From the NCBI RefSeq assembly GCF_055900595.2, contig NZ_CM148325.1: DNA of 64,000 nucleotides; one strand, given 5' to 3'. Position numbers and translations under genes: made by a program. Position 1 is the first letter of the stretch. Each line of letters begins with the position of its first letter. Under the pieces are notes generated by a model. It searched no databases and was not told the origin of the DNA. It worked only from the letters and a program-made list of their open reading frames with translations. Positions 1,342 through 46,319 of the stretch are shown here, one piece after another.

Positions 1342-4300
1342 AACGTGTTCTCCGGTTGCGTTGAGGTTGCGCAAAGCCAGCGCGTAATGTGTTGCGCACA
1401 AGCCTGAACGTGGGGGGCTTCCATCATGATTTGCCAGTGGCTGGCTTCAATCACAGCGTCGTCGGCGTTGTTTATCCAGCCCTGCCACTCGGTTTCTGCT
1501 GGCGTCCAGCGCGCGGGTCTCCCGGCGGCATACACCATGAGACAGGGGACCGGAACGCTTTCGCCCGGCGTATGCTCAGTCAGTAAACGCAGCAGATGCT
1601 CGATGTTGTCGAGCCACGTTTCTGCCGCTTGCAGCGTCAGGTTTTGCGACACCATACCGACCGTTTTAGCGAGGCTGATAAAGTCGGCAAGCTGGCTGTC
1701 GGGCGTCTGATGGTCGAAATGTTCGGGCAGTGCCAGAGGCGTTTGTCCTTCGGCTAACAGGCGCAGCAGGGCCGCCCGGTTTTCGCAACAGAAATCCTGT
1801 CGGCACACGGGATCGATTAACACCATCCGAACCTGCTTGCCTTTGGCGTACAGGCGCTGTGCGGCGCCCGCCGCAAGAAACGCGCCATACGACCAACCCG
1901 CCAGCACATAAGGGCCGTGAGGCTGCTGACGACGGATGCACCCGACATACTCATCGATCATCTGGTCGAGCGTGGCAAAGTGCTGCGGCGATTTTGCTTG
2001 CAGGCCGAAAACGCGCCTGTTCAACGCGTTAGCGAGCGGCAGCCAGGCGCTGATATCGCCGTCTGAAGCGTGGAAGACAAACAGGGTTTCCTCACCGTCG
2101 CCCTGGCAAAGGGGTATCGGGTTGTCCTCTCCTGACGTAGCCGCCTGTAGATGGGCGCAGAAGTCGCTCAGCGTCGAATGGTTGAACAGATCCTGAAGGT
2201 TAGCCCTGGCAATCCCTCTCCGGTTTAGCTGCGCGACCATCCTTGTCGCCATCAGGCTGTCGCCGCCCAGTTCGAAAAAGTCGTGATGCCTTGCCACGGG
2301 GCGAGACAGCAGCGATTGCCAGAGTTCAGCCACCTGTTTTTCCAGCGCCGAATTCCCCCCGGCAACTGGCGTGGGTTTGGCTGGCTCAGTCGGCGCATCA
2401 GACGGGGCATGCAGCGGCGTAAATAACGCTTCTCTTTGCCGGATCTGTAAAATGGGCAGACCGGTGCCAAAGCGCTGCTGTAAATAGCGGCTCACGGCTT
2501 TTTTATCCGGGCGATTTACGCCAGGCGAACGCGCTACCAGCAGATGCTGGCGCAGCGGCGACGATTCCTGCGCGGGCCACGCCAGCTCGTTTGCAAACCC
2601 GGCCTGAACGAGAACCTCCTGCCATGCGGAGCGGGTGAGCATCGGTTTCTCATCCCGGCGGCGGAAATCGCGGTATCCGCTTAATCCCTCAATAAAGCCC
2701 ACGCTCGCCAGCTGGAATACGCTGTTTCGCTCCGTCGCTTCAACGATCAGCAAACGTCCGCCGGCTTTCAGCAACAGTTTTAATCTGCGCAACGTCTGGA
2801 CGACATGGCTGGCGTCGTGGAGCACATTGACGGCAACGATCAGGTCGTAACCCGCCTCCGGGTGGGCGGTGAAATCCAGCGGCTGGTTGATGTCGAACAA
2901 GGCATAAGACACCTGCGATTCATCATGGAAACGGGCTCTGGCGTCATTGAGGAACTGCGCGGAGACGTCCGTGAAGTGGTACGACTGCCGCGTGTTCCGC
3001 GTGGCCTTCAGCACCGGCGCGGTAGTGGCTGCGGTTCCGGCGCCAACCTCCAGAATCCGTTCTGCGCTGCACAAGGCGGCAATCTGCGCGGTATAGCGAT
3101 TCAGACAGGCGCTGGCGGGGTTGTCGCGATACAGCGCGTCGGTAACGCGATGCTGCTCGTTGAACAGCAATTCCAGCGGAGAACACTGCCCGGAGAAGAG
3201 GGCGTCGTGCCGGGCGATGCAGGTTTCCAGATACTGCGCCAGCGCCTGGCTCCATTGGCTTTGCGGGCACGCTTCCTGAGGCTCAGGAATCTCGCTGAGC
3301 GGAATACGGCAGCGCCAGCTTTCACCTTCGCGGATTAACCACTCTCTTTCCGTCAGACACTGTAGCCACTGGCGCAGCAGACGCTGGTGAGACGCTTGCG
3401 CGGACAGCGCCTGTACTACTGCGCTAAAGCGATGGGCGATCTCCGGCGTGGTAAACAGGCCGTGACGATTTAGCGTAGCCGCGATCCCCTGTAGCGCACG
3501 CGCCTCCAGCCAGCGCCAGGTCGCCTCCAGCTCATCAAGCTGCGCCTGCTCAGGCAACGGCAGCGCCAGTTGGGTAAGTTCGTGCTCATCAGGCATCGCC
3601 GCTGATGGCGACGGATCGTCGGCCATCACGATATCCAGCGTCAACGCGCCCTGTTCGGTTATTTCCGCTCTGGCCTGCCGGATGCCGGGGTATTCGAGCG
3701 TCGCCTGCTCAATATCCCGCAGGTCGTAGTCCGCCTGCGCGTTCAGCGGCCAGCGTCGGCGGGGAATGTGCCCGGCGATGCCGCTGGCGAGAGTCTTCAG
3801 GCTTTCAGGGGCGGCGATGACGGCTTGCAGGATGGCGCAATAGTCATTAAACATCGCCTCGGCAGCGCCGGGTTCCAGCACGTTGTCCATGCAGTACCAG
3901 CTAAACATCAACTCGCCGTCGCTCTCCATGACCTGATGATCCAGCCAGACCTGCGGCGTTTGCGTGAATACATAGCAGGGTTCGCCGAACAGATGGCTCA
4001 TCGCCTGATCGATAGTCATGCCTTCCAGCGTCATCCCCAGCATACTGGTAAACACTACCGGCATCAGCGGTTGACGTTGTGATCCGCGCAGGCGGCCCAG
4101 CTCACGGATCACCTCAACACCGTTCATTTCACTGTGCGCCATGTTTTGCCAGAGGCGCTGTTGGGTCTGTTGCATCTGCTCTTGCAACGTCACCGGCGCT
4201 GAGAAGTTAAAATCAACCAGCGTGACGGAGGTAAAATCACCAATCAACTGGTTGATTTGCGGATGGATCGGCTGGCGATTGAAGAACGTCAGGTTCAGCG

Positions 4301-13900: not shown

Positions 13901-16900
13901 AGATCTCTGGCGAGATGGCGCAACAGGGCAACGTTCCCGCAAGCGTGTGCCACGCCTGCGGCAGTGCCGGGTTCCGATGATCGGTAACGCAAAAAGCCTC
14001 GCCCTGAGGAACAACGTATGCCGCCAGCGTTTTTTCTTTTTCGCCGATCGCCAGAACGGTTGCTTGTTTCACCCCCGCCAGCTGGCTGAGCGCGCTTTCG
14101 ATTTCGCCCAGCTCGATGCGATATCCTCCGACTTTGACCTGCTTGTCACGACGACCGAGGAACTCGATTGTGCCATCTGGCCAGTAGCAGCCGAGATCGC
14201 CGGTGCGATACCAGCGCTCGTCCGGGAGCGTCAAAAATTGCTGCTCGCTACGCAGGGGATCGTTGAAATAGCCTTCCGCGACCCCAATGCCGCCAATCCA
14301 TAATTCACCCGGCACCCAGTCAGGGCAGTCCCGGCCCTGTTCATCCACCACCCGGTAGCGTTGGTTGGTTAGCGGAAAACCGTAAGGGATGGAGCGCCAG
14401 TGGGCGGGGACGTCGTGAATTTCGCAGGCGTTAGACCAGATAGACGCCTCGGTGGCGCCGCCCATAGCGATAAATTGTCCTTGTGGCCGGAAGGCCCGAT
14501 AACGGGCGGGGAGGTCAAGCCCGATCCAGTCGCCGGAAAGCATCACTGCGCGCAGGTTTTCCGGCGTGGCGTTGGCGAAACCTTCACACCAGGTCAGCAG
14601 CATATCGAACAGCGCCGGGACGCTGTTCCAGAGCGTGACCTGATGGCGCTGGATCAGCTCACACCATGCGTGAGGATCGCGCCGTTGATTTTCCATCACC
14701 ATCACCAGCGCGCCGCCCGCGCGCAGTACGCCAAAAATGTCGTAAACCGATAAATCAAAATGTAGGGCGGAGAGGGCCAGCACCCTGTCATGCGGGCCAA
14801 CCTGATAGCGGGTATTGATATCGCAACAGGTGTTAAGCGCTCCCCGGTGAGAAATGACTACCCCTTTCGGCGTACCGGTAGAGCCGGAGGTGTAGATAAT
14901 GTAGGCCGGTTGCGTGGGGGCGCGTACTACCGGGTTGGCGATCGGCTCCGCCTCAATGGCCTGCTGCCAGGCAAGGACGGGAATATCGTCTGACCCGGCG
15001 CTGGCGTCGTGCTGACAAATGAGCACCAGCCGGACGCTGGCGTCAGCGTAGATTTTCTCGCGCCGTGCGGCAGGCTGATCCAGCGAAACCGGAACGTAAA
15101 CCGCCCCGGCCAGCAGGACGGCCAGAACCGCAACAAGTTGTCCTGCGCCTTTCGACATCGTGATAGCCACATTATCGCCGGGCTGAACCCCGCACTCGAT
15201 TAACCTGCCCGCGCAACGGCGGGCATAGTCTGTCAGCTCATGATAATTCCACTGATAACGCATGTCCGTTACCGCCAGCGCCTGCGGCTGTTGCAGAGCG
15301 ATACGGAAAATGCCTTCATGCAGCAAGCCTTCGGGAATGGGGGCGCCGGTGGCGTTGACCCGTTCGCGTATCGCGCGCTGGCTGGCGGGCATCATATCTG
15401 CGAACGGCTTTTGCCAGGCGCTTTCGTCATCGCAGAGTTGGTTAATCAACTGGCAGTAGGCGTCGAACAATGTTTCGACTAACGCCGGAGGGAACAGCGC
15501 GTCGTTGCTGTCCCATTGTAGCCAGACCTCGCCGTGATGCTCGAACGCCAGATGATCTATCCAGACCTGCGGCGTTTGCGAGATGCCCCATTCCGGCTCG
15601 CCCAACGGCGATTCTGCGCGGCTGCTGTAGAGGGAACGCCCCAGATTGCTGGTAAATACCACCGGGGCGCCGTGGGGGTAGCGCTGCTGGCGTTTGAGTT
15701 CACGGAGTAATTCGACGCCGGACCAGTGGCGATGCTCCCAGTCCTCCGTAAACGTGAGCTGGTTTTTACGCGCCAGGTTGCTGACGGTATCGCCATCGCA
15801 GGCGGTATCCAGCAGAAGAATATTGGTGAAGTCGGCAAGCATCGCGCCAACCGCCGGGTGCAGCGGCTGGCGGTCGAATAAGGTGATGTTAAGCAGCAGA
15901 CGCGTCAGGCCGCCCCAGCGAGCCAGCACGGCAGAAAAACAGGTCGCCAGTGCCATTGTCGGCGTCACGCCATACTCGCCGGCCCGGTTGCTAAAGGCGT
16001 GCCAGCGTGTTGCCGGGACAATCATGCGGCGTCGGGTATTACGGACTTCACGTAGCGTGGCGGGTTCGCAGGCCAGCGGCAAGACGGGCGCGGGGGGAAG
16101 CGTCGATGCTTTCGCCAGCCAGTAAGCGCGCGCGTCGTCTCTCAGTGGTTGATTGATCTTCTGCTGGTGCAGCAAATACGAGCGGAAATCATAGCGGGTG
16201 TCGATAGCCGGCAGTGATTCTCCGGCCAGCAGGGCGTTAAGCTCATCGAAGAAAAGCGTAAAGCTGGAGGCATCCATAATCAGCAGGTCAATATTGACAT
16301 GGAGGCGGTGGCGATTGTCCGGCAAGAGCGTCAGCTGAAAATCAAACGTTTCGCCGATTTCCACGCGTAAAAGACGGTGGCTCAGGCGCTGGCGCAGTGC
16401 GTCCAGATAGGCCTGGCGGCTTTCAGCGTCGTTATGGCGTAAATCATGAACGGTGACGCCGTTCCAGTAAGGTTGCGGTAGCCAGACCTGCTGCCCGTCG
16501 GGGCGAAAGGCGATATGCAGCATTGGGTGGCGTTGCAGCAAGGTCGTGATGGCCTGCTCCAGCTGCGACGCCGTCAGACAATGGCCTTCAAACTCCTGAT
16601 ACAGGTGGCAACCCACGCCGCCAAGCGTCTGCCCCGGCATGCGGCCCGTCAGGTAGGCGTGCTGTACTGGCGTCAATGGGAAGGGCGTACTTTCGGTCAT
16701 GTTCGGCCAGGATGATTCGTCGGGCGGCGTTTCTTCTTCCGCGTTCTCCGGCGACCGGCTGAGCATTAACTGGTTCCATGCCGCCAGCGTGGGGGCGGCA
16801 TACAGCTCGCGAAGGGTAAGGCGGTAGCCATTTTTACGAAACCAGTGTAACCATCTCATCAATCTTATGGAATCCAGGCCGGCCTGGATCAGGTTGCTCT

Positions 16901-17024
16901 CTTCATGTAACTGCTGCGGCGTTAAATTCAGTTCCTGTATGAGCCGCTCGCGTAATTGTTGGTAATCAGCCGCGTGGCGGTTGTCCGGTAACAGCGAATC
17001 CTGAGATGGTGCGCCAGAAATCAT
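10917..17024 (-). CDS. irp2: HMWP2 yersiniabactin NRPS (ArCP-Cy-A-PCP-Cy-PCP)
   Basis: ORF track starts at a GTG (17042); preferred start is ATG at 17024 preceded by AGGAGG. Adenylation motifs [12 protein letters not shown] and YRTGDLG, two cyclization motifs ([22 protein letters not shown]), carrier motifs [11 protein letters not shown] and [11 protein letters not shown]. Confidence 0.95.
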
Positions 17025-17074
17025 TCTTCCTCCTGATGGCACGTCTTACCGAAAAGCATTACTCATATGAGAAT

Positions 17075-17135
17075 AATAATTATTAACAATTGGATGCTAC
17101 CCGAAACGGGTTTATTTATGCCCGTTTCGGGTTGG
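17075..17135 (-). promoter_or_regulatory. irp2 promoter region: Fur-box-like AT-rich site plus inverted repeat cccgaaacggg/cccgtttcggg (candidate YbtA repeat)
   Basis: gagaataataattattaac resembles the Fur consensus GATAATGATAATCATTATC; an 11-bp inverted repeat lies at 17101-17132; location just upstream of the irp2 start. Confidence 0.4.
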
Positions 17136-17149
17136 TAACAGGCGGAAAG

Positions 17150-17185
17150 AACAGAGGCCCGGATGAGGTATCCGGGCCTCTGTCA
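17150..17185 (-). terminator. Putative intrinsic terminator downstream of ybtA
   Basis: Inverted repeat gaggcccggat / atccgggcctc followed by a T-rich run on the minus strand, about 30 bp after the ybtA stop. Confidence 0.4.
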
Positions 17186-17214
17186 GGGAGGAGTTTAGGG
17201 GGGCGCGACCCCGG

Positions 17215-18174
17215 TTACATCCCGCGTTTAAAGGTCGAAGGAGTTACGCCAAACTGTTTCTGGAAGGCGGCAGAGAAATGGCTGGCGTTGGCATAGCCCA
17301 GATCGGCCGCCACCGTCATGACGGAGGTATTGCCGTTGGCCAGGCGTCTTCTGGCTTCCTGCATTCGTTCAGCCTGAAACAGGCCATAGACGCTGTTGTT
17401 GAACAGAACGCGGAAGCCTCGCTTAATTTTGAGAACGCTCAGACCGGACTCTCTGGCCAGCTCCGCGACGCCCGGCGCTTGCGTCAGATCAGCCAGCAGC
17501 AGATCCTTCGCCCGCAGCAGTTTCTGGCGTTCCATCGGGTTGAAGTGGCAGGAGAGGCAACTGGCGTCTTCGCGATGTTCATCCAGCACCAGGCTGAGCA
17601 TGACCAGACTTTGCCCCTGCAACCATAGCGTCGACGGCTTTTGTTCATGACTGAATCCGCCGTGCATGCGCATCAGCGCGTGACGCAAGGCCTGAGCCGT
17701 TAAGTGGGTTTCAGCATTACAACGCTGCTGCTGGCAACAGCAGTGGGAGTCGATCTTATTCTTAATGACCGCGCTAATATCCGGCACCCACAGCGCGAGG
17801 GTTTCAGGGCTGAAGGAGAGGGTAATGCTCTCGAATCGGCCACAATAGGAGGCGCTGCCGCGACAGTCTGGCGTATGGGTAATGTAATGGCGATTGCGCG
17901 CAAGCTCCCAGTCGGTGTGGCGCCGGAGTCCCTGAATCGCAAAGCGCGATGTGCCTTCCAGGATGCACGAGAAGTTAATCCTGCCCAGATCGTCGTGTAG
18001 CTGCAACGTCTCTGGCCGCGCAAAATGGCCCCTCCAGAGCAAAATATCCATACCTTCCTGCAACGAACAGCGCAGCAGTTCACACTGAGCAGGAATATTG
18101 CCATCGTTTGCAGGTTTCCCGACCACCAACTGGTGAATAGAGATTTCAGATTGCGTTTGCGGTGACTCCGTCAT
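17215..18174 (-). CDS. ybtA: AraC-family transcriptional activator of yersiniabactin genes
   Basis: 319-aa ORF with a C-terminal AraC-type HTH; sits between irp2 and the divergent ybtPQXS operon as in the HPI. Confidence 0.9.
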   Translation of the reverse strand: MTESPQTQSEISIHQLVVGKPANDGNIPAQCELLRCSLQEGMDILLWRGHFARPETLQLHDDLGRINFSCILEGTSRFAIQGLRRHTDWELARNRHYITHTPDCRGSASYCGRFESITLSFSPETLALWVPDISAVIKNKIDSHCCCQQQRCNAETHLTAQALRHALMRMHGGFSHEQKPSTLWLQGQSLVMLSLVLDEHREDASCLSCHFNPMERQKLLRAKDLLLADLTQAPGVAELARESGLSVLKIKRGFRVLFNNSVYGLFQAERMQEARRRLANGNTSVMTVAADLGYANASHFSAAFQKQFGVTPSTFKRGM

Positions 18175-18240
18175 GACCTGGTTATCTCCCTGTGGCTTAG
18201 ACCAATGCGGGTATAAATAGAACCGAATGGGGTAGATGAG

Positions 18241-18262
18241 TTATTGATAATGGTTATTATTC
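18241..18262. promoter_or_regulatory. Fur-box-like site in the divergent ybtA / ybtP promoter region
   Basis: ttattgataatggttattattc matches the Fur consensus well; lies in the ybtA-ybtP intergenic region. Confidence 0.45.
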
Positions 18263-18340
18263 ACATTAATTCTCAGAACGCCACCCTGAATTGTCGTTTT
18301 TGGCGTCCGTAAAAATTCATCAGGAAATTCAGTTACTCCC

Positions 18341-20143
18341 ATGTCATCTCAATCATCCAATACTGAATCGCTGTCCCGATTTCCTCTCTGGCAGGTGATT
18401 ACACCGGTTCGCAGGAAGGTTATTTTAGCTATGGCGCTGGCGGGGCTGGCGGCATTAACCAGCCTGGGGGCGCTCCTTTTTCTGGCGTGGAGCCTGCGTG
18501 ACATTCGCGCGACGCCTGACGCTATTCCGGCCTGGCCGCTGGGCGGCGTGATCGGCTGCGTGGTCTTAACTTTTGTTCTGCGCTTACAGGCGTTCAACAC
18601 CTCTCATTACGCGGCTTTTCATCTGGAGAACATTCTGCGCAGCAGGTTAGCCCGTAAAGCATTGCAGCTTCCGCCTGGCGTGTTACAGCAAATGGGCAGC
18701 GGGTCAGTGGCGAAAGTGATGCTGGATGACGTGAAGTCGTTACATATTTTTGTGGCCGACAGCACGCCGCTCTATGCCCGCGCGATCATCATGCCGCTGG
18801 CGACAATCGTTATCTTGTTCTGGCTGGACTGGCGGCTGGCAATCGCGACGCTGGGGGTACTGGCGTTTGGATCGGTTGTTCTCGTGCTCGCCCGCCAGCG
18901 TTCGGAAAATATGGCTCAGCGTTATCATAAGGCGCGCGAGCAGGTTAGCGCGGCGGTTATTGAGTTCGTGCAGGCCATGCCCGTGGTGAGAACGTTTGAT
19001 AGCGGCAGCACCAGTTTTTTGCGCTATCAACGCGCCCTTGAAGAGTGGGTCGATGTGCTCAAAACCTGGTATCGCAAAGCCGGTTTTTCAGCGCGTTTTT
19101 CCTTCTCGATTCTGAATCCTCTCCCGACCCTGTTTGTCCTGATCTGGTCGGGATACGGCCTGTTGCACTATGGCAGTTTCGATTTTATCGCGTGGGTGGC
19201 CGTTTTACTGCTGGGCAGCGGAATGGCCGAAGCCGTAATGCCAATGATGATGCTCAATAACCTGGTCGCGCAAACGCGTTTAAGCATTCAGCGTATTTAT
19301 CAGGTTCTCGCGATGCCGGAGTTACCGCTGCCGCAGTCTGACCAGCAGCCGCAAGAGGCGAGCATTACCTTTGAGCAGGTGAGCTTTCATTATCCGCAAG
19401 CGCGTACTGGCGCCGCGTTGCAGGAGGTGAGCTTTCATGTGCCTGCCGGGCAAATTGTGGCGCTGGTCGGGCCAAGCGGCGCCGGAAAAAGCACCGTGGC
19501 GCGCTTGCTGCTGCGTTACGCCGACCCGGACAAAGGCCATATCCGTATTGGCGGCGTGGATCTGCGTGATATGCAGACGGACACCCTGATGAAGCAACTC
19601 TCGTTTGTGTTTCAGGACAACTTCCTTTTTGCCGACACGATAGCCAATAACATTCGTCTGGGCGCGCCGGATACGCCGCTGGAGGCGGTTATAGCGGCGG
19701 CCAGAGTGGCGCAGGCCCATGATTTTATTAGCGCTCTGCCAGAAGGTTACAACACTCGAGTCGGGGAACGTGGGGTATTTCTCTCCGGCGGCCAGCGGCA
19801 GCGCATTACTATCGCCCGGGCGCTTTTGCAGGATCGCCCCATCCTGGTGCTCGATGAGGCGACGGCGTTTGCTGACCCGGAAAACGAAGCGGCGCTTATC
19901 AAGGCGCTCGCGGCGGCCATGCGTGGCCGGACGGTCATCATGGTCGCGCATCGTCTCTCAATGGTGACTCAGGCCGATGTGATATTGCTGTTTTCCGACG
20001 GACAACTCAGGGAAATGGGGAACCATACGCAACTGTTGGCGCAGGGCGGCCTGTATCAACGGCTCTGGCAACACTATCAGCAGGCGCAGCATTGGGTGCC
20101 GGGTGGAACACAGGAAGAGGTGGTGGAAAATGAAAGACAATAA
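18341..20143 (+). CDS. ybtP: Yersiniabactin ABC transporter, fused permease/ATPase
   Basis: 600-aa ORF with N-terminal TM domain, Walker A GPSGAGKST, ABC signature LSGGQRQR and Walker B ILVLDEAT. Confidence 0.9.
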   Translation: MSSQSSNTESLSRFPLWQVITPVRRKVILAMALAGLAALTSLGALLFLAWSLRDIRATPDAIPAWPLGGVIGCVVLTFVLRLQAFNTSHYAAFHLENILRSRLARKALQLPPGVLQQMGSGSVAKVMLDDVKSLHIFVADSTPLYARAIIMPLATIVILFWLDWRLAIATLGVLAFGSVVLVLARQRSENMAQRYHKAREQVSAAVIEFVQAMPVVRTFDSGSTSFLRYQRALEEWVDVLKTWYRKAGFSARFSFSILNPLPTLFVLIWSGYGLLHYGSFDFIAWVAVLLLGSGMAEAVMPMMMLNNLVAQTRLSIQRIYQVLAMPELPLPQSDQQPQEASITFEQVSFHYPQARTGAALQEVSFHVPAGQIVALVGPSGAGKSTVARLLLRYADPDKGHIRIGGVDLRDMQTDTLMKQLSFVFQDNFLFADTIANNIRLGAPDTPLEAVIAAARVAQAHDFISALPEGYNTRVGERGVFLSGGQRQRITIARALLQDRPILVLDEATAFADPENEAALIKALAAAMRGRTVIMVAHRLSMVTQADVILLFSDGQLREMGNHTQLLAQGGLYQRLWQHYQQAQHWVPGGTQEEVVENERQ

Positions 20144-36093: not shown

Positions 36094-36313
36094 TTAATTC
36101 ATCAGAATGTGCATTTGGGGTGTTGGCTGGAAGAGTCGCTGGTAGATGTTATTGTGCCAGCAGGGGCAGGGTAAGGTACTGTATCGATATGCTTTGGCAA
36201 TTGCATGTGCCGCAGATGGAGATGAAATGCCAATAAAAAAGCCTGAGTTCGATGAGGGACGAACTCAGGCTAGTGTTAAGTTTTACAGTAACACGCCGCA
36301 GCGCGTTGGCTGA

Positions 36314-37429: not shown

Positions 37430-37976
37430 TATGTATTCCCTTGTGATTATAATCTTCATGAATATATCAATAAGTGCCGTTATCCAAAAAAAAGCACATT
37501 TGGATACTATTCTATGAAGTTCATTTTATTTTAAGGATTACATGTAACAAATGTATTTAAAAGATTTCAAAATGTTTCTAATCTATTTAATATAATTCGG
37601 GATTATGAATTCTGAATATAAACATTCATGAATATTATAAATGCATATCAATAAGTTATGAGTTGAGCAGAAAGATAGGGGGTATCAATGATTGTTGCGC
37701 TAAACACCTGGTGTGATCACGCGCACATTAATGAAGGAATAAAAAAAGCCGGCATCATGCCGGCCCCAAAAATATAAACAAGACGATAAAAGGCTAATAA
37801 CGTAAGCATCATGACACAGAATAATAAAAAGGTATAATTGTAATCAGTGCTAATATATTGATTAAATGAATTAATAAAGCCGATATCAAAGATAAATAAA
37901 ATCGCTCAAAACGATTTTTCCTGTATTCACTGCCGTTGCGCAAAAATTATCTATTTGTTCAAAAAATGAGTGAGTC

Positions 37977-43291: not shown

Positions 43292-43317
43292 AAGGGTATC
43301 ATTAACACCCGACCGGA

Positions 43318-43490
43318 TGTGGCGCTCACGTCGCATCCGGTCGGGTGTACCAGTGTCTGCACTGAATTGCCTGATGCGACGCTATCGCGTCTTATCATGC
43401 CTACGTTATAAAACTATCGATGTCTGTCGCGTCTTATCATGCCACCATTATAAAATTATCGCTGTTTTGCGGTACGCTATCGCCAGGTTA
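43318..43490. repeat. Cluster of REP/BIME-like palindromic units
   Basis: Repeated gcctgatgcgacgctatcgcgtcttatcatgcc-type units between yodC and dgcQ. Confidence 0.5.
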
Positions 43491-46232: not shown

Positions 46233-46319
46233 AACACATCAGATTTCCTGGTGTAACGAATTTTTTAAGTGCTTCTTGCTTAAGCAAGTTTCATCCCGAC
46301 CCCCTCAGGGTCGGGATTT
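46233..46319 (+). ncRNA. dsrA: DsrA small regulatory RNA with intrinsic terminator
   Basis: Sequence AACACATCAGATTTCCTGGTGTAACGAATTTTTTAAGTGCTTCTTGCTTAAGCAAGTTTCATCCCGACCCCCTCAGGGTCGGGATTT matches DsrA; the terminal hairpin is followed by a T-run. Confidence 0.9.

Follow-up and report, generated by a model that had tools for sequence, protein, structure and literature searches.

Results

Locus and gene context of irp2

The DNA analysed here is a single stretch of 64 kb (hereafter designated the window), in which ybtA and irp2, both read from the minus strand, are separated by an intergenic region of 190 bp that extends from the end of ybtA at 17215 to the irp2 ATG at 17024. The product of ybtA shares 99% identity with proteins named YbtA and contains AraC-type helix-turn-helix domains. 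The intergenic region matches its counterpart in E. coli copies of the high-pathogenicity island with 100% identity and is carried by 2265 of 5426 complete genomes. In an identical E. coli island, the annotated gene order is fyuA-ybtE-ybtT-ybtU-irp1-irp2-ybtA / ybtP-ybtQ-ybtX-ybtS-int-tRNA-Asn. Features of the window outside the promoter element itself are as follows.

17022-17024, minus strand: irp2 start codon ATG, with the ribosome-binding site AGGAGG at 17029-17034 (RefSeq annotation of the identical sequence)
17151-17183, minus strand: terminator-like hairpin of ybtA (14-15 bp stem, -29.3 kcal/mol, z -7.2), followed by TTCTTTCC
26155-26230: tRNA-Asn, the island attachment site, adjoining the integrase gene at 24731-25993
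27222-27311: tRNA-Ser
37741-37830: small RNA RseX
46233-46319: small RNA DsrA

Taken as a group, the two tRNA genes, the integrase gene, and the two small RNAs locate the window in the E. coli chromosome. For irp2, the annotated ATG at 17024 behind AGGAGG is a credible start and is preferred over the GTG at 17042 given in a mechanical list of open reading frames; this GTG falls within the predicted irp2 leader. Between ybtA and the irp2 promoter lies the hairpin at 17151-17183, the probable terminator of ybtA. Its loop base varies among island lineages, and its stem is degraded in a metagenomic locus of 91% identity. The run of six C at 17198-17203, located after the ybtA stop codon and ahead of the terminator, is present as seven C in E. 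coli AREA_499; either this homopolymer is polymorphic in length or the difference is an artefact of sequencing.

A palindrome made of two in-phase units, next to a Fur box

Two exact copies of CCCGAAACGGG, and no more, are present in the 64-kb window, one at 17100-17110 on the plus strand and the other at 17121-17131 on the minus strand. The two copies lie within a perfect inverted repeat upstream of irp2, the arms of which (ACCCGAAACGGG at 17099-17110 and CCCGTTTCGGGT at 17121-17132) are separated by a 10-nt gap; the original prediction of an inverted repeat at this place was therefore real, except that its arms are 12 bp long and not 11 bp. At 4 loci, the window has a perfect inverted repeat with arms of 12 bp or more and a loop no longer than 20 nt, as compared with about 0.1 expected per first-order Markov shuffle; such repeats are roughly forty times commoner in the window than in the shuffles. 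Three further perfect inverted repeats of 11-15 bp, located between chromosomal genes at 36240-36271, 43305-43348, and 46923-46948, are probably terminators or REP-like elements.

The irp2 palindrome is composed of two copies of a self-complementary 13-bp unit, ACCCGwwwCGGGT, placed 21 bp apart from start to start, and the pair occupies the positions 75-108 bp upstream of the irp2 ATG. The element reads as a long inverted repeat because each of the two adjacent units is nearly self-complementary, and it is better described as two in-phase self-complementary units than as one inverted repeat. The parts of the element, with reference to the 17 cassettes compared below, are as follows.

17120-17132, minus strand: distal YbtA-type unit (RS1-like), ACCCGAAACGGGC; the left palindrome arm, invariant in 10 island lineages and aligning to unit 1 of the 17 cassettes
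17112-17119, minus strand: AT-rich 8-bp spacer, ATAAATAA; sets the 21-bp phase, AT-rich and of equal length in all 17 cassettes
17099-17111, minus strand: proximal YbtA-type unit (RS2-like), ACCCGTTTCGGGT; followed by a conserved AG (GGGTAG)
17095-17100, minus strand: predicted weak -35, GTAGCA, from a relaxed hexamer comparison; overlaps the proximal unit by 2 bp
17073-17078, minus strand: predicted -10, TATTAT, from the same comparison; within the Fur box
17069-17087, minus strand: Fur box, GTTAATAATTATTATTCTC on the irp2 strand; 19 bp, 15/19 match to the consensus GATAATGATAATCATTATC

Read in the direction of irp2, the order is thus the terminator hairpin 17183-17151 with TTCTTTCC, then ACCCGAAACGGGC, ATAAATAA, ACCCGTTTCGGGT, AGCATCCAATT, and GTTAATAATTATTATTCTC, and, after a further 44 bases, the ATG; the gap between the palindrome and the Fur box amounts to 11 bases. 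When the whole window was searched for two ACC-N6-GGG 12-mers spaced 20-22 bp apart, the irp2 site alone was recovered, and within the 190-bp intergenic region the palindrome is the only candidate for YbtA repeats.

An AT-rich, Fur-like site had also been noticed upstream of irp2, and this assignment holds. The Fur box ties with a site in the ybtA/ybtP promoter (18246-18264) as the best consensus match on both strands of the 64 kb; a score of this height is expected at about 0.13 sites per shuffled window, and when the 190-bp intergenic region was shuffled 2000 times, it was reached once. Moreover, the box is letter for letter the putative irp2 Fur site described in a 2024 study of pESI, a plasmid of Salmonella Infantis (PMC11225919). 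The distance to the irp2 start codon is 44 bp in pESI as in the window, and the pESI site was reported to overlap the predicted -10. In that study, the pESI irp2 promoter fragment containing the Fur site underwent a dose-dependent gel shift with purified Fur (PMC11225919). The operator range first proposed, 17075-17135, leaves out 6 bases of the Fur box (17069-17087), namely the first ones.

Predicted promoter geometry

A strict sigma-70 promoter scan of 16900-18500 gave zero matches, which the poor -35 predicted for irp2 would explain; a relaxed hexamer comparison over the irp2, fyuA, and ybtP promoters was used in its place. The sole hexamer pair consistent over the three promoters consists of a -35 of GTAGCA or TAGATG and a -10 of TATTAT or TATCAT with a spacer of 16-17 bp. 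Given the outcome of the strict scan, the assignment of the irp2 -35 and -10 is a prediction. The lack of a sigma-70 match at irp2 fits with an activator-dependent promoter.

Recurrence of the cassette at fyuA and ybtP

The arrangement found at irp2 is repeated at other promoters of the island. At fyuA, in the identical E. coli island, ACCCGAAACAGG is followed after 9 bp by ACCCGTTTCGGGTAGCA and, 12 bp further on, by a Fur box; the proximal 13-mer is identical to that of irp2, and the distal unit differs by one mismatch. At the divergent ybtA/ybtP promoter (18175-18340), three elements were distinguished.

18200-18264, plus strand: ybtP-directed cassette, consisting of GACCAATGCGGGT, 8 bp, AACCGAATGGGGT, 12 bp, and the Fur box GATAATGGTTATTATTCAC
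18294-18280, ybtA strand: third, single unit, ACAATTCAGGGTGGC, upstream of the shared Fur box
18195-18184, ybtA leader: published CsrA motif, CCACAGGGAGAT

The proximal unit of the ybtP cassette can also be written as AACCGAATGGGGTAG (GACCAATGCGGGT, 8 bp, AACCGAATGGGGTAG, 12 bp, GATAATGGTTATTATTCAC). The two ybtP units are not mutually complementary, yet their ACC...GGGT ends and the 21-bp phase are kept. From the positions of the cassette and the CsrA motif, it follows that the two ybtP units are located within the 5' leader of ybtA, which fits the reported autorepression.

Two observations on the fyuA side may be added. In E. coli 14EC001 (827-870 of the segment analysed), the fyuA repeat pair stands 11 nt past the ybtE stop codon without an intervening terminator hairpin, and the end of the irp2-ybtE transcript is not obvious from the sequence. 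On the Salmonella Birkenhead plasmid NZ_CP045959.1 (segment 1-5200), a decayed yersiniabactin remnant is composed of a ybtQ fragment, a truncated ybtE-like open reading frame, and fyuA split into two open reading frames; the fyuA-type repeat pair and its Fur box (about 3005-3075) are still intact there.

The cassette beside distant YbtA homologues

The DNA around eight YbtA homologues was examined. Cassettes of the same layout precede genes for non-ribosomal peptide synthetases (NRPS), ABC transporters, MFS proteins, and TonB receptors beside the homologues in six other genera, in which the identity of the regulator to YbtA is 79% (Serratia symbiotica), 57% (Pluralibacter), 55% (Pectobacterium), 51% (Erwinia), 49% (Burkholderia), and 47% (Xanthomonas). 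At a locus with a YbtA of 91% identity, both units and the Fur box are unchanged and the terminator hairpin has diverged. In Serratia symbiotica, ACCCGAAGCGGG is followed after 10 bp by CCCGTTTCGGGT and then by a better Fur box; in Pluralibacter gergoviae, AACCGATCCGGGG is followed after 8 bp by AACGTTTTGGGGT and a Fur box, the pair being non-palindromic. Among the four remaining loci (55-47%; Pectobacterium, Erwinia rhapontici, Burkholderia oklahomensis, and Xanthomonas hydrangeae), where the cassette stands before ABC-transporter, MFS, TonB-receptor, and NRPS genes, that of B. oklahomensis contains a proximal 13-mer, ACCCGTTTCGGGTAG, identical to the irp2 unit.

The siderophore clusters of Pectobacterium, Erwinia, Burkholderia, and Xanthomonas are arranged differently, and every adjacent promoter has the two units and GGGTAG. 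A Fur box is also present with one exception, an Erwinia cassette ahead of an MFS gene in which none could be recognised. At a YbtA-like locus of Xenorhabdus bovienii, consisting of an orphan regulator gene with zero siderophore neighbours, the cassette was not found.

Altogether, 17 cassettes could be aligned without internal gaps, giving the consensus CCGATnCGGGTAGAAATAGAnCCGATTCGGGTAG; the start-to-start spacing of the units, 21 bp at irp2, is 20-22 bp over the 17. A profile HMM was constructed from the 11 non-island cassettes of the five most distant loci and searched against both strands of the 64 kb with nhmmer. Only two significant matches were obtained, the ybtP promoter (18200-18264, E 1.2e-14) and the irp2 promoter (17133-17069 in irp2 orientation, E 1.5e-12). 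This test is partly circular, because the training cassettes had been picked by eye and by pattern search for their resemblance to the island sites.

Variation within the island

Among ten lineages of the island (E. coli, Klebsiella plasmids, and Salmonella plasmids), about ten positions of the intergenic region are variable; none of these falls in the units, the spacer, or the Fur box, and one lies between the proximal unit and the Fur box. Furthermore, 1939 of 2265 E. coli genomes have the 65-bp cassette without any change.

Two variants of the cassette were sampled. In the distal unit of E. coli E14, a C is replaced by G (ACCCGAAAGGGGC). In E. coli AVS0947, 3 bp (ATT) are lost inside the Fur box and the predicted -35/-10 spacer is shortened by 3 bp; this deletion might silence irp2.

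Regulatory reading of the element

On these grounds, we consider, with a probability of about 0.92, that 17069-17132 forms the core regulatory region of the irp2-irp1-ybtUTE promoter, in which a weak -35 adjoins the sites for a YbtA dimer and the -10 is covered by a Fur operator. The view that iron (through Fur) and YbtA control this promoter, already expressed when the element was first noticed, is supported by the presence of the same cassette at fyuA, at ybtP, and beside distant YbtA homologues, and by the RS repeats of the literature.

The units at 17132-17120 and 17111-17099 (minus strand), being 21 bp apart, would face the same side of the helix and would serve as sites for the AraC-family protein YbtA encoded immediately upstream. 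When loaded with ferric or cupric yersiniabactin, as the literature has it, YbtA on the proximal unit would abut the poor -35, or overlap it by 2 bp, and would recruit RNA polymerase in a class-II manner. The Fur box (17087-17069) spans the predicted spacer and the -10 TATTAT, and iron-loaded Fur would therefore block the irp2 promoter when iron is plentiful. Under iron scarcity, the irp2 operon for yersiniabactin synthesis would be switched on. The positions of the -35 and -10, the dimer stoichiometry of YbtA, and the class-II mechanism at irp2 are all inferred.

Much of this arrangement is in the literature. YbtA-binding 'repeated sequences' are described for the irp2, fyuA, and ybtA/irp6 promoters, expression of irp2, fyuA, and ybtP is reported to depend on YbtA, and YbtA has been proposed to bind as a dimer with yersiniabactin (PMC5634559). 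Physical binding of YbtA to the RS repeats is attributed to Anisimov 2005 (PMC5634559, PMC11225919), and every leader of the island is reported to contain a Fur box together with pseudopalindromes predicted as YbtA sites (PMC8725597). Among open papers, a search for YbtA footprinting or gel shifts found none that maps YbtA on irp2, and a search of paper texts for the literal repeat sequence brought up unrelated papers only, the sequence being printed in none of the papers searched. The two units presumably correspond to the 'RS' repeats that Fetherston 1996 and Anisimov 2005 assigned to YbtA, a base-by-base identity to which their position, the sequence comparison, and secondary sources point.

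Alternative readings of the palindrome

Readings at the RNA level start from the stability of the fold: if transcribed, the palindrome would form a hairpin of -21.7 kcal/mol (z -6.2) at irp2 and of -20.2 kcal/mol at fyuA, and each of the two palindromes lies just downstream of a co-directional gene. At fyuA, 11 nt separate the ybtE stop codon from unit 1, which forms part of the sole hairpin before the promoter. Because the perfectly or nearly complementary units stand behind the co-directional genes ybtA and ybtE, they may have a second role in addition to protein binding, as a hairpin of about -20 kcal/mol that insulates or stabilises the 3' ends of read-through transcripts; we regard this as having a slim chance of being correct.

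The same fold would also permit the palindrome to act as an RNA hairpin in its own right, that is, as a terminator, an attenuator, or a 3'-end stabiliser on read-through from ybtA to irp2 and from ybtE to fyuA. This alternative, which had been put forward together with the operator, fares poorly and is very improbable. On the irp2 strand, the bases following the palindrome are AGCATCC, with no U-tract; the sole terminator-like call at the palindrome has a 5-bp stem and is on the antisense strand; and ybtA already possesses its separate strong hairpin at 17151-17183. Searching Rfam gave zero family matches at the palindrome. Nor is the foldability conserved: the equivalents at ybtP (z -0.5) and at Pluralibacter irp2 (z -0.9) fold no better than shuffles, and over the 17 cassettes foldability is scattered without relation to the presence of an upstream co-directional gene, 9 of the 17 being not above shuffles. 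The C-to-G variant of E. coli E14 breaks one pair of the stem.

For the 12 pairs, 65.7% of cells in the alignment of the 17 sequences are paired as compared with 63.5% after shuffling, and the covariation is 0.089 as compared with 0.087; the dyad internal to each unit gave the same outcome. With no excess of either pairing or covariation, the complementarity is to be seen as following from the conserved sequence of the units, not as a selected pairing.

A separate idea, that palindromic cassettes are confined to sites behind co-directional genes, was rejected, since three divergent cassettes also fold well.

Still less probable is that the main binder of the repeats is a regulator other than YbtA, such as a core-genome AraC-like protein. 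A full ybtA promoter fusion with all the repeats was active in the island-free E. coli DH5-alpha, and an unknown factor binding YbtA sites was proposed (PMC5634559); from this activity without YbtA, it follows that another factor may also use such sites. However, the cassette accompanies YbtA homologues in six genera, ahead of their siderophore genes, it is confined within the window to promoters of the island, and the expression of irp2, fyuA, and ybtP is reported to depend on YbtA. An irp2 activation that is lost on deletion of ybtA and that YbtA alone restores, and binding of YbtA in vitro, have likewise been reported.

That the palindrome is a functionless chance feature or neutral remnant, for which nothing speaks beyond the general frequency of short repeats, is practically negligible as a possibility in view of the approximately 0.1 perfect 12-bp inverted repeats expected per window and the invariance of the palindrome among island lineages. 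As the palindrome is also conserved at paralogous and orthologous promoters, this reading already stands contradicted.

Discussion

Collectively, 17069-17132 can be annotated according to the operator reading, as a stretch of the irp2 promoter that contains a pair of YbtA repeats and the Fur operator. The YbtA repeats and the Fur site of this promoter have already been described, and the observation is correct but ordinary, with little significance beyond annotation. A modest comparative addition is the cassette shared beside YbtA-like regulators, from Enterobacterales to Burkholderia and Xanthomonas. Its layout could be used as a search profile for promoters under YbtA-like control: a pair of dyad-symmetric units in a 21-bp phase, then GGGTAG, and, after another 10-13 bp, a Fur box.

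The closest known system is that of the YbtA RS repeats themselves (Fetherston 1996, Mol Microbiol 22:315; Anisimov 2005, Int J Med Microbiol 295:19; via PMC5634559, PMC8725597, and PMC11225919), with which the present element shares the island, the promoter, and the adjacent regulator gene. In both descriptions, two repeats stand upstream of a Fur site and recur at fyuA and ybtP; no difference was found at this level of description.

Compared with the E. coli Fur consensus, the irp2 box is likewise a 19-bp AT-rich site that overlaps the predicted -10, and its four mismatches are within the normal range for functional sites.

A further parallel is the PchR-box of the pyochelin promoters of Pseudomonas aeruginosa, which Michel et al. 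are said to have described in 2005 (Mol Microbiol 58:495) and which is reportedly bound by a siderophore-sensing AraC-type activator. Its two repeats reportedly lie about two helical turns apart beside the -35 of Fur-controlled siderophore promoters, a possible resemblance to the YbtA repeats; the PchR repeat sequence differs, the YbtA units being GC-rich and dyad-symmetric.

The geometry may finally be compared with that of AraC at the I1-I2 sites of araBAD, where two sites are 21 bp apart, the proximal one overlaps the -35, and the dimer, each subunit of which has two helix-turn-helix motifs, activates in the class-II manner. The half-sites of AraC, 17 bp each, are asymmetric and directly repeated, whereas the YbtA units are self-complementary, so that the pair reads as inverted. 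By analogy, knowledge of the AraC/XylS family supports a model in which a YbtA dimer would occupy the two in-phase sites of irp2, the proximal one touching the -35, and would contact RNA polymerase.
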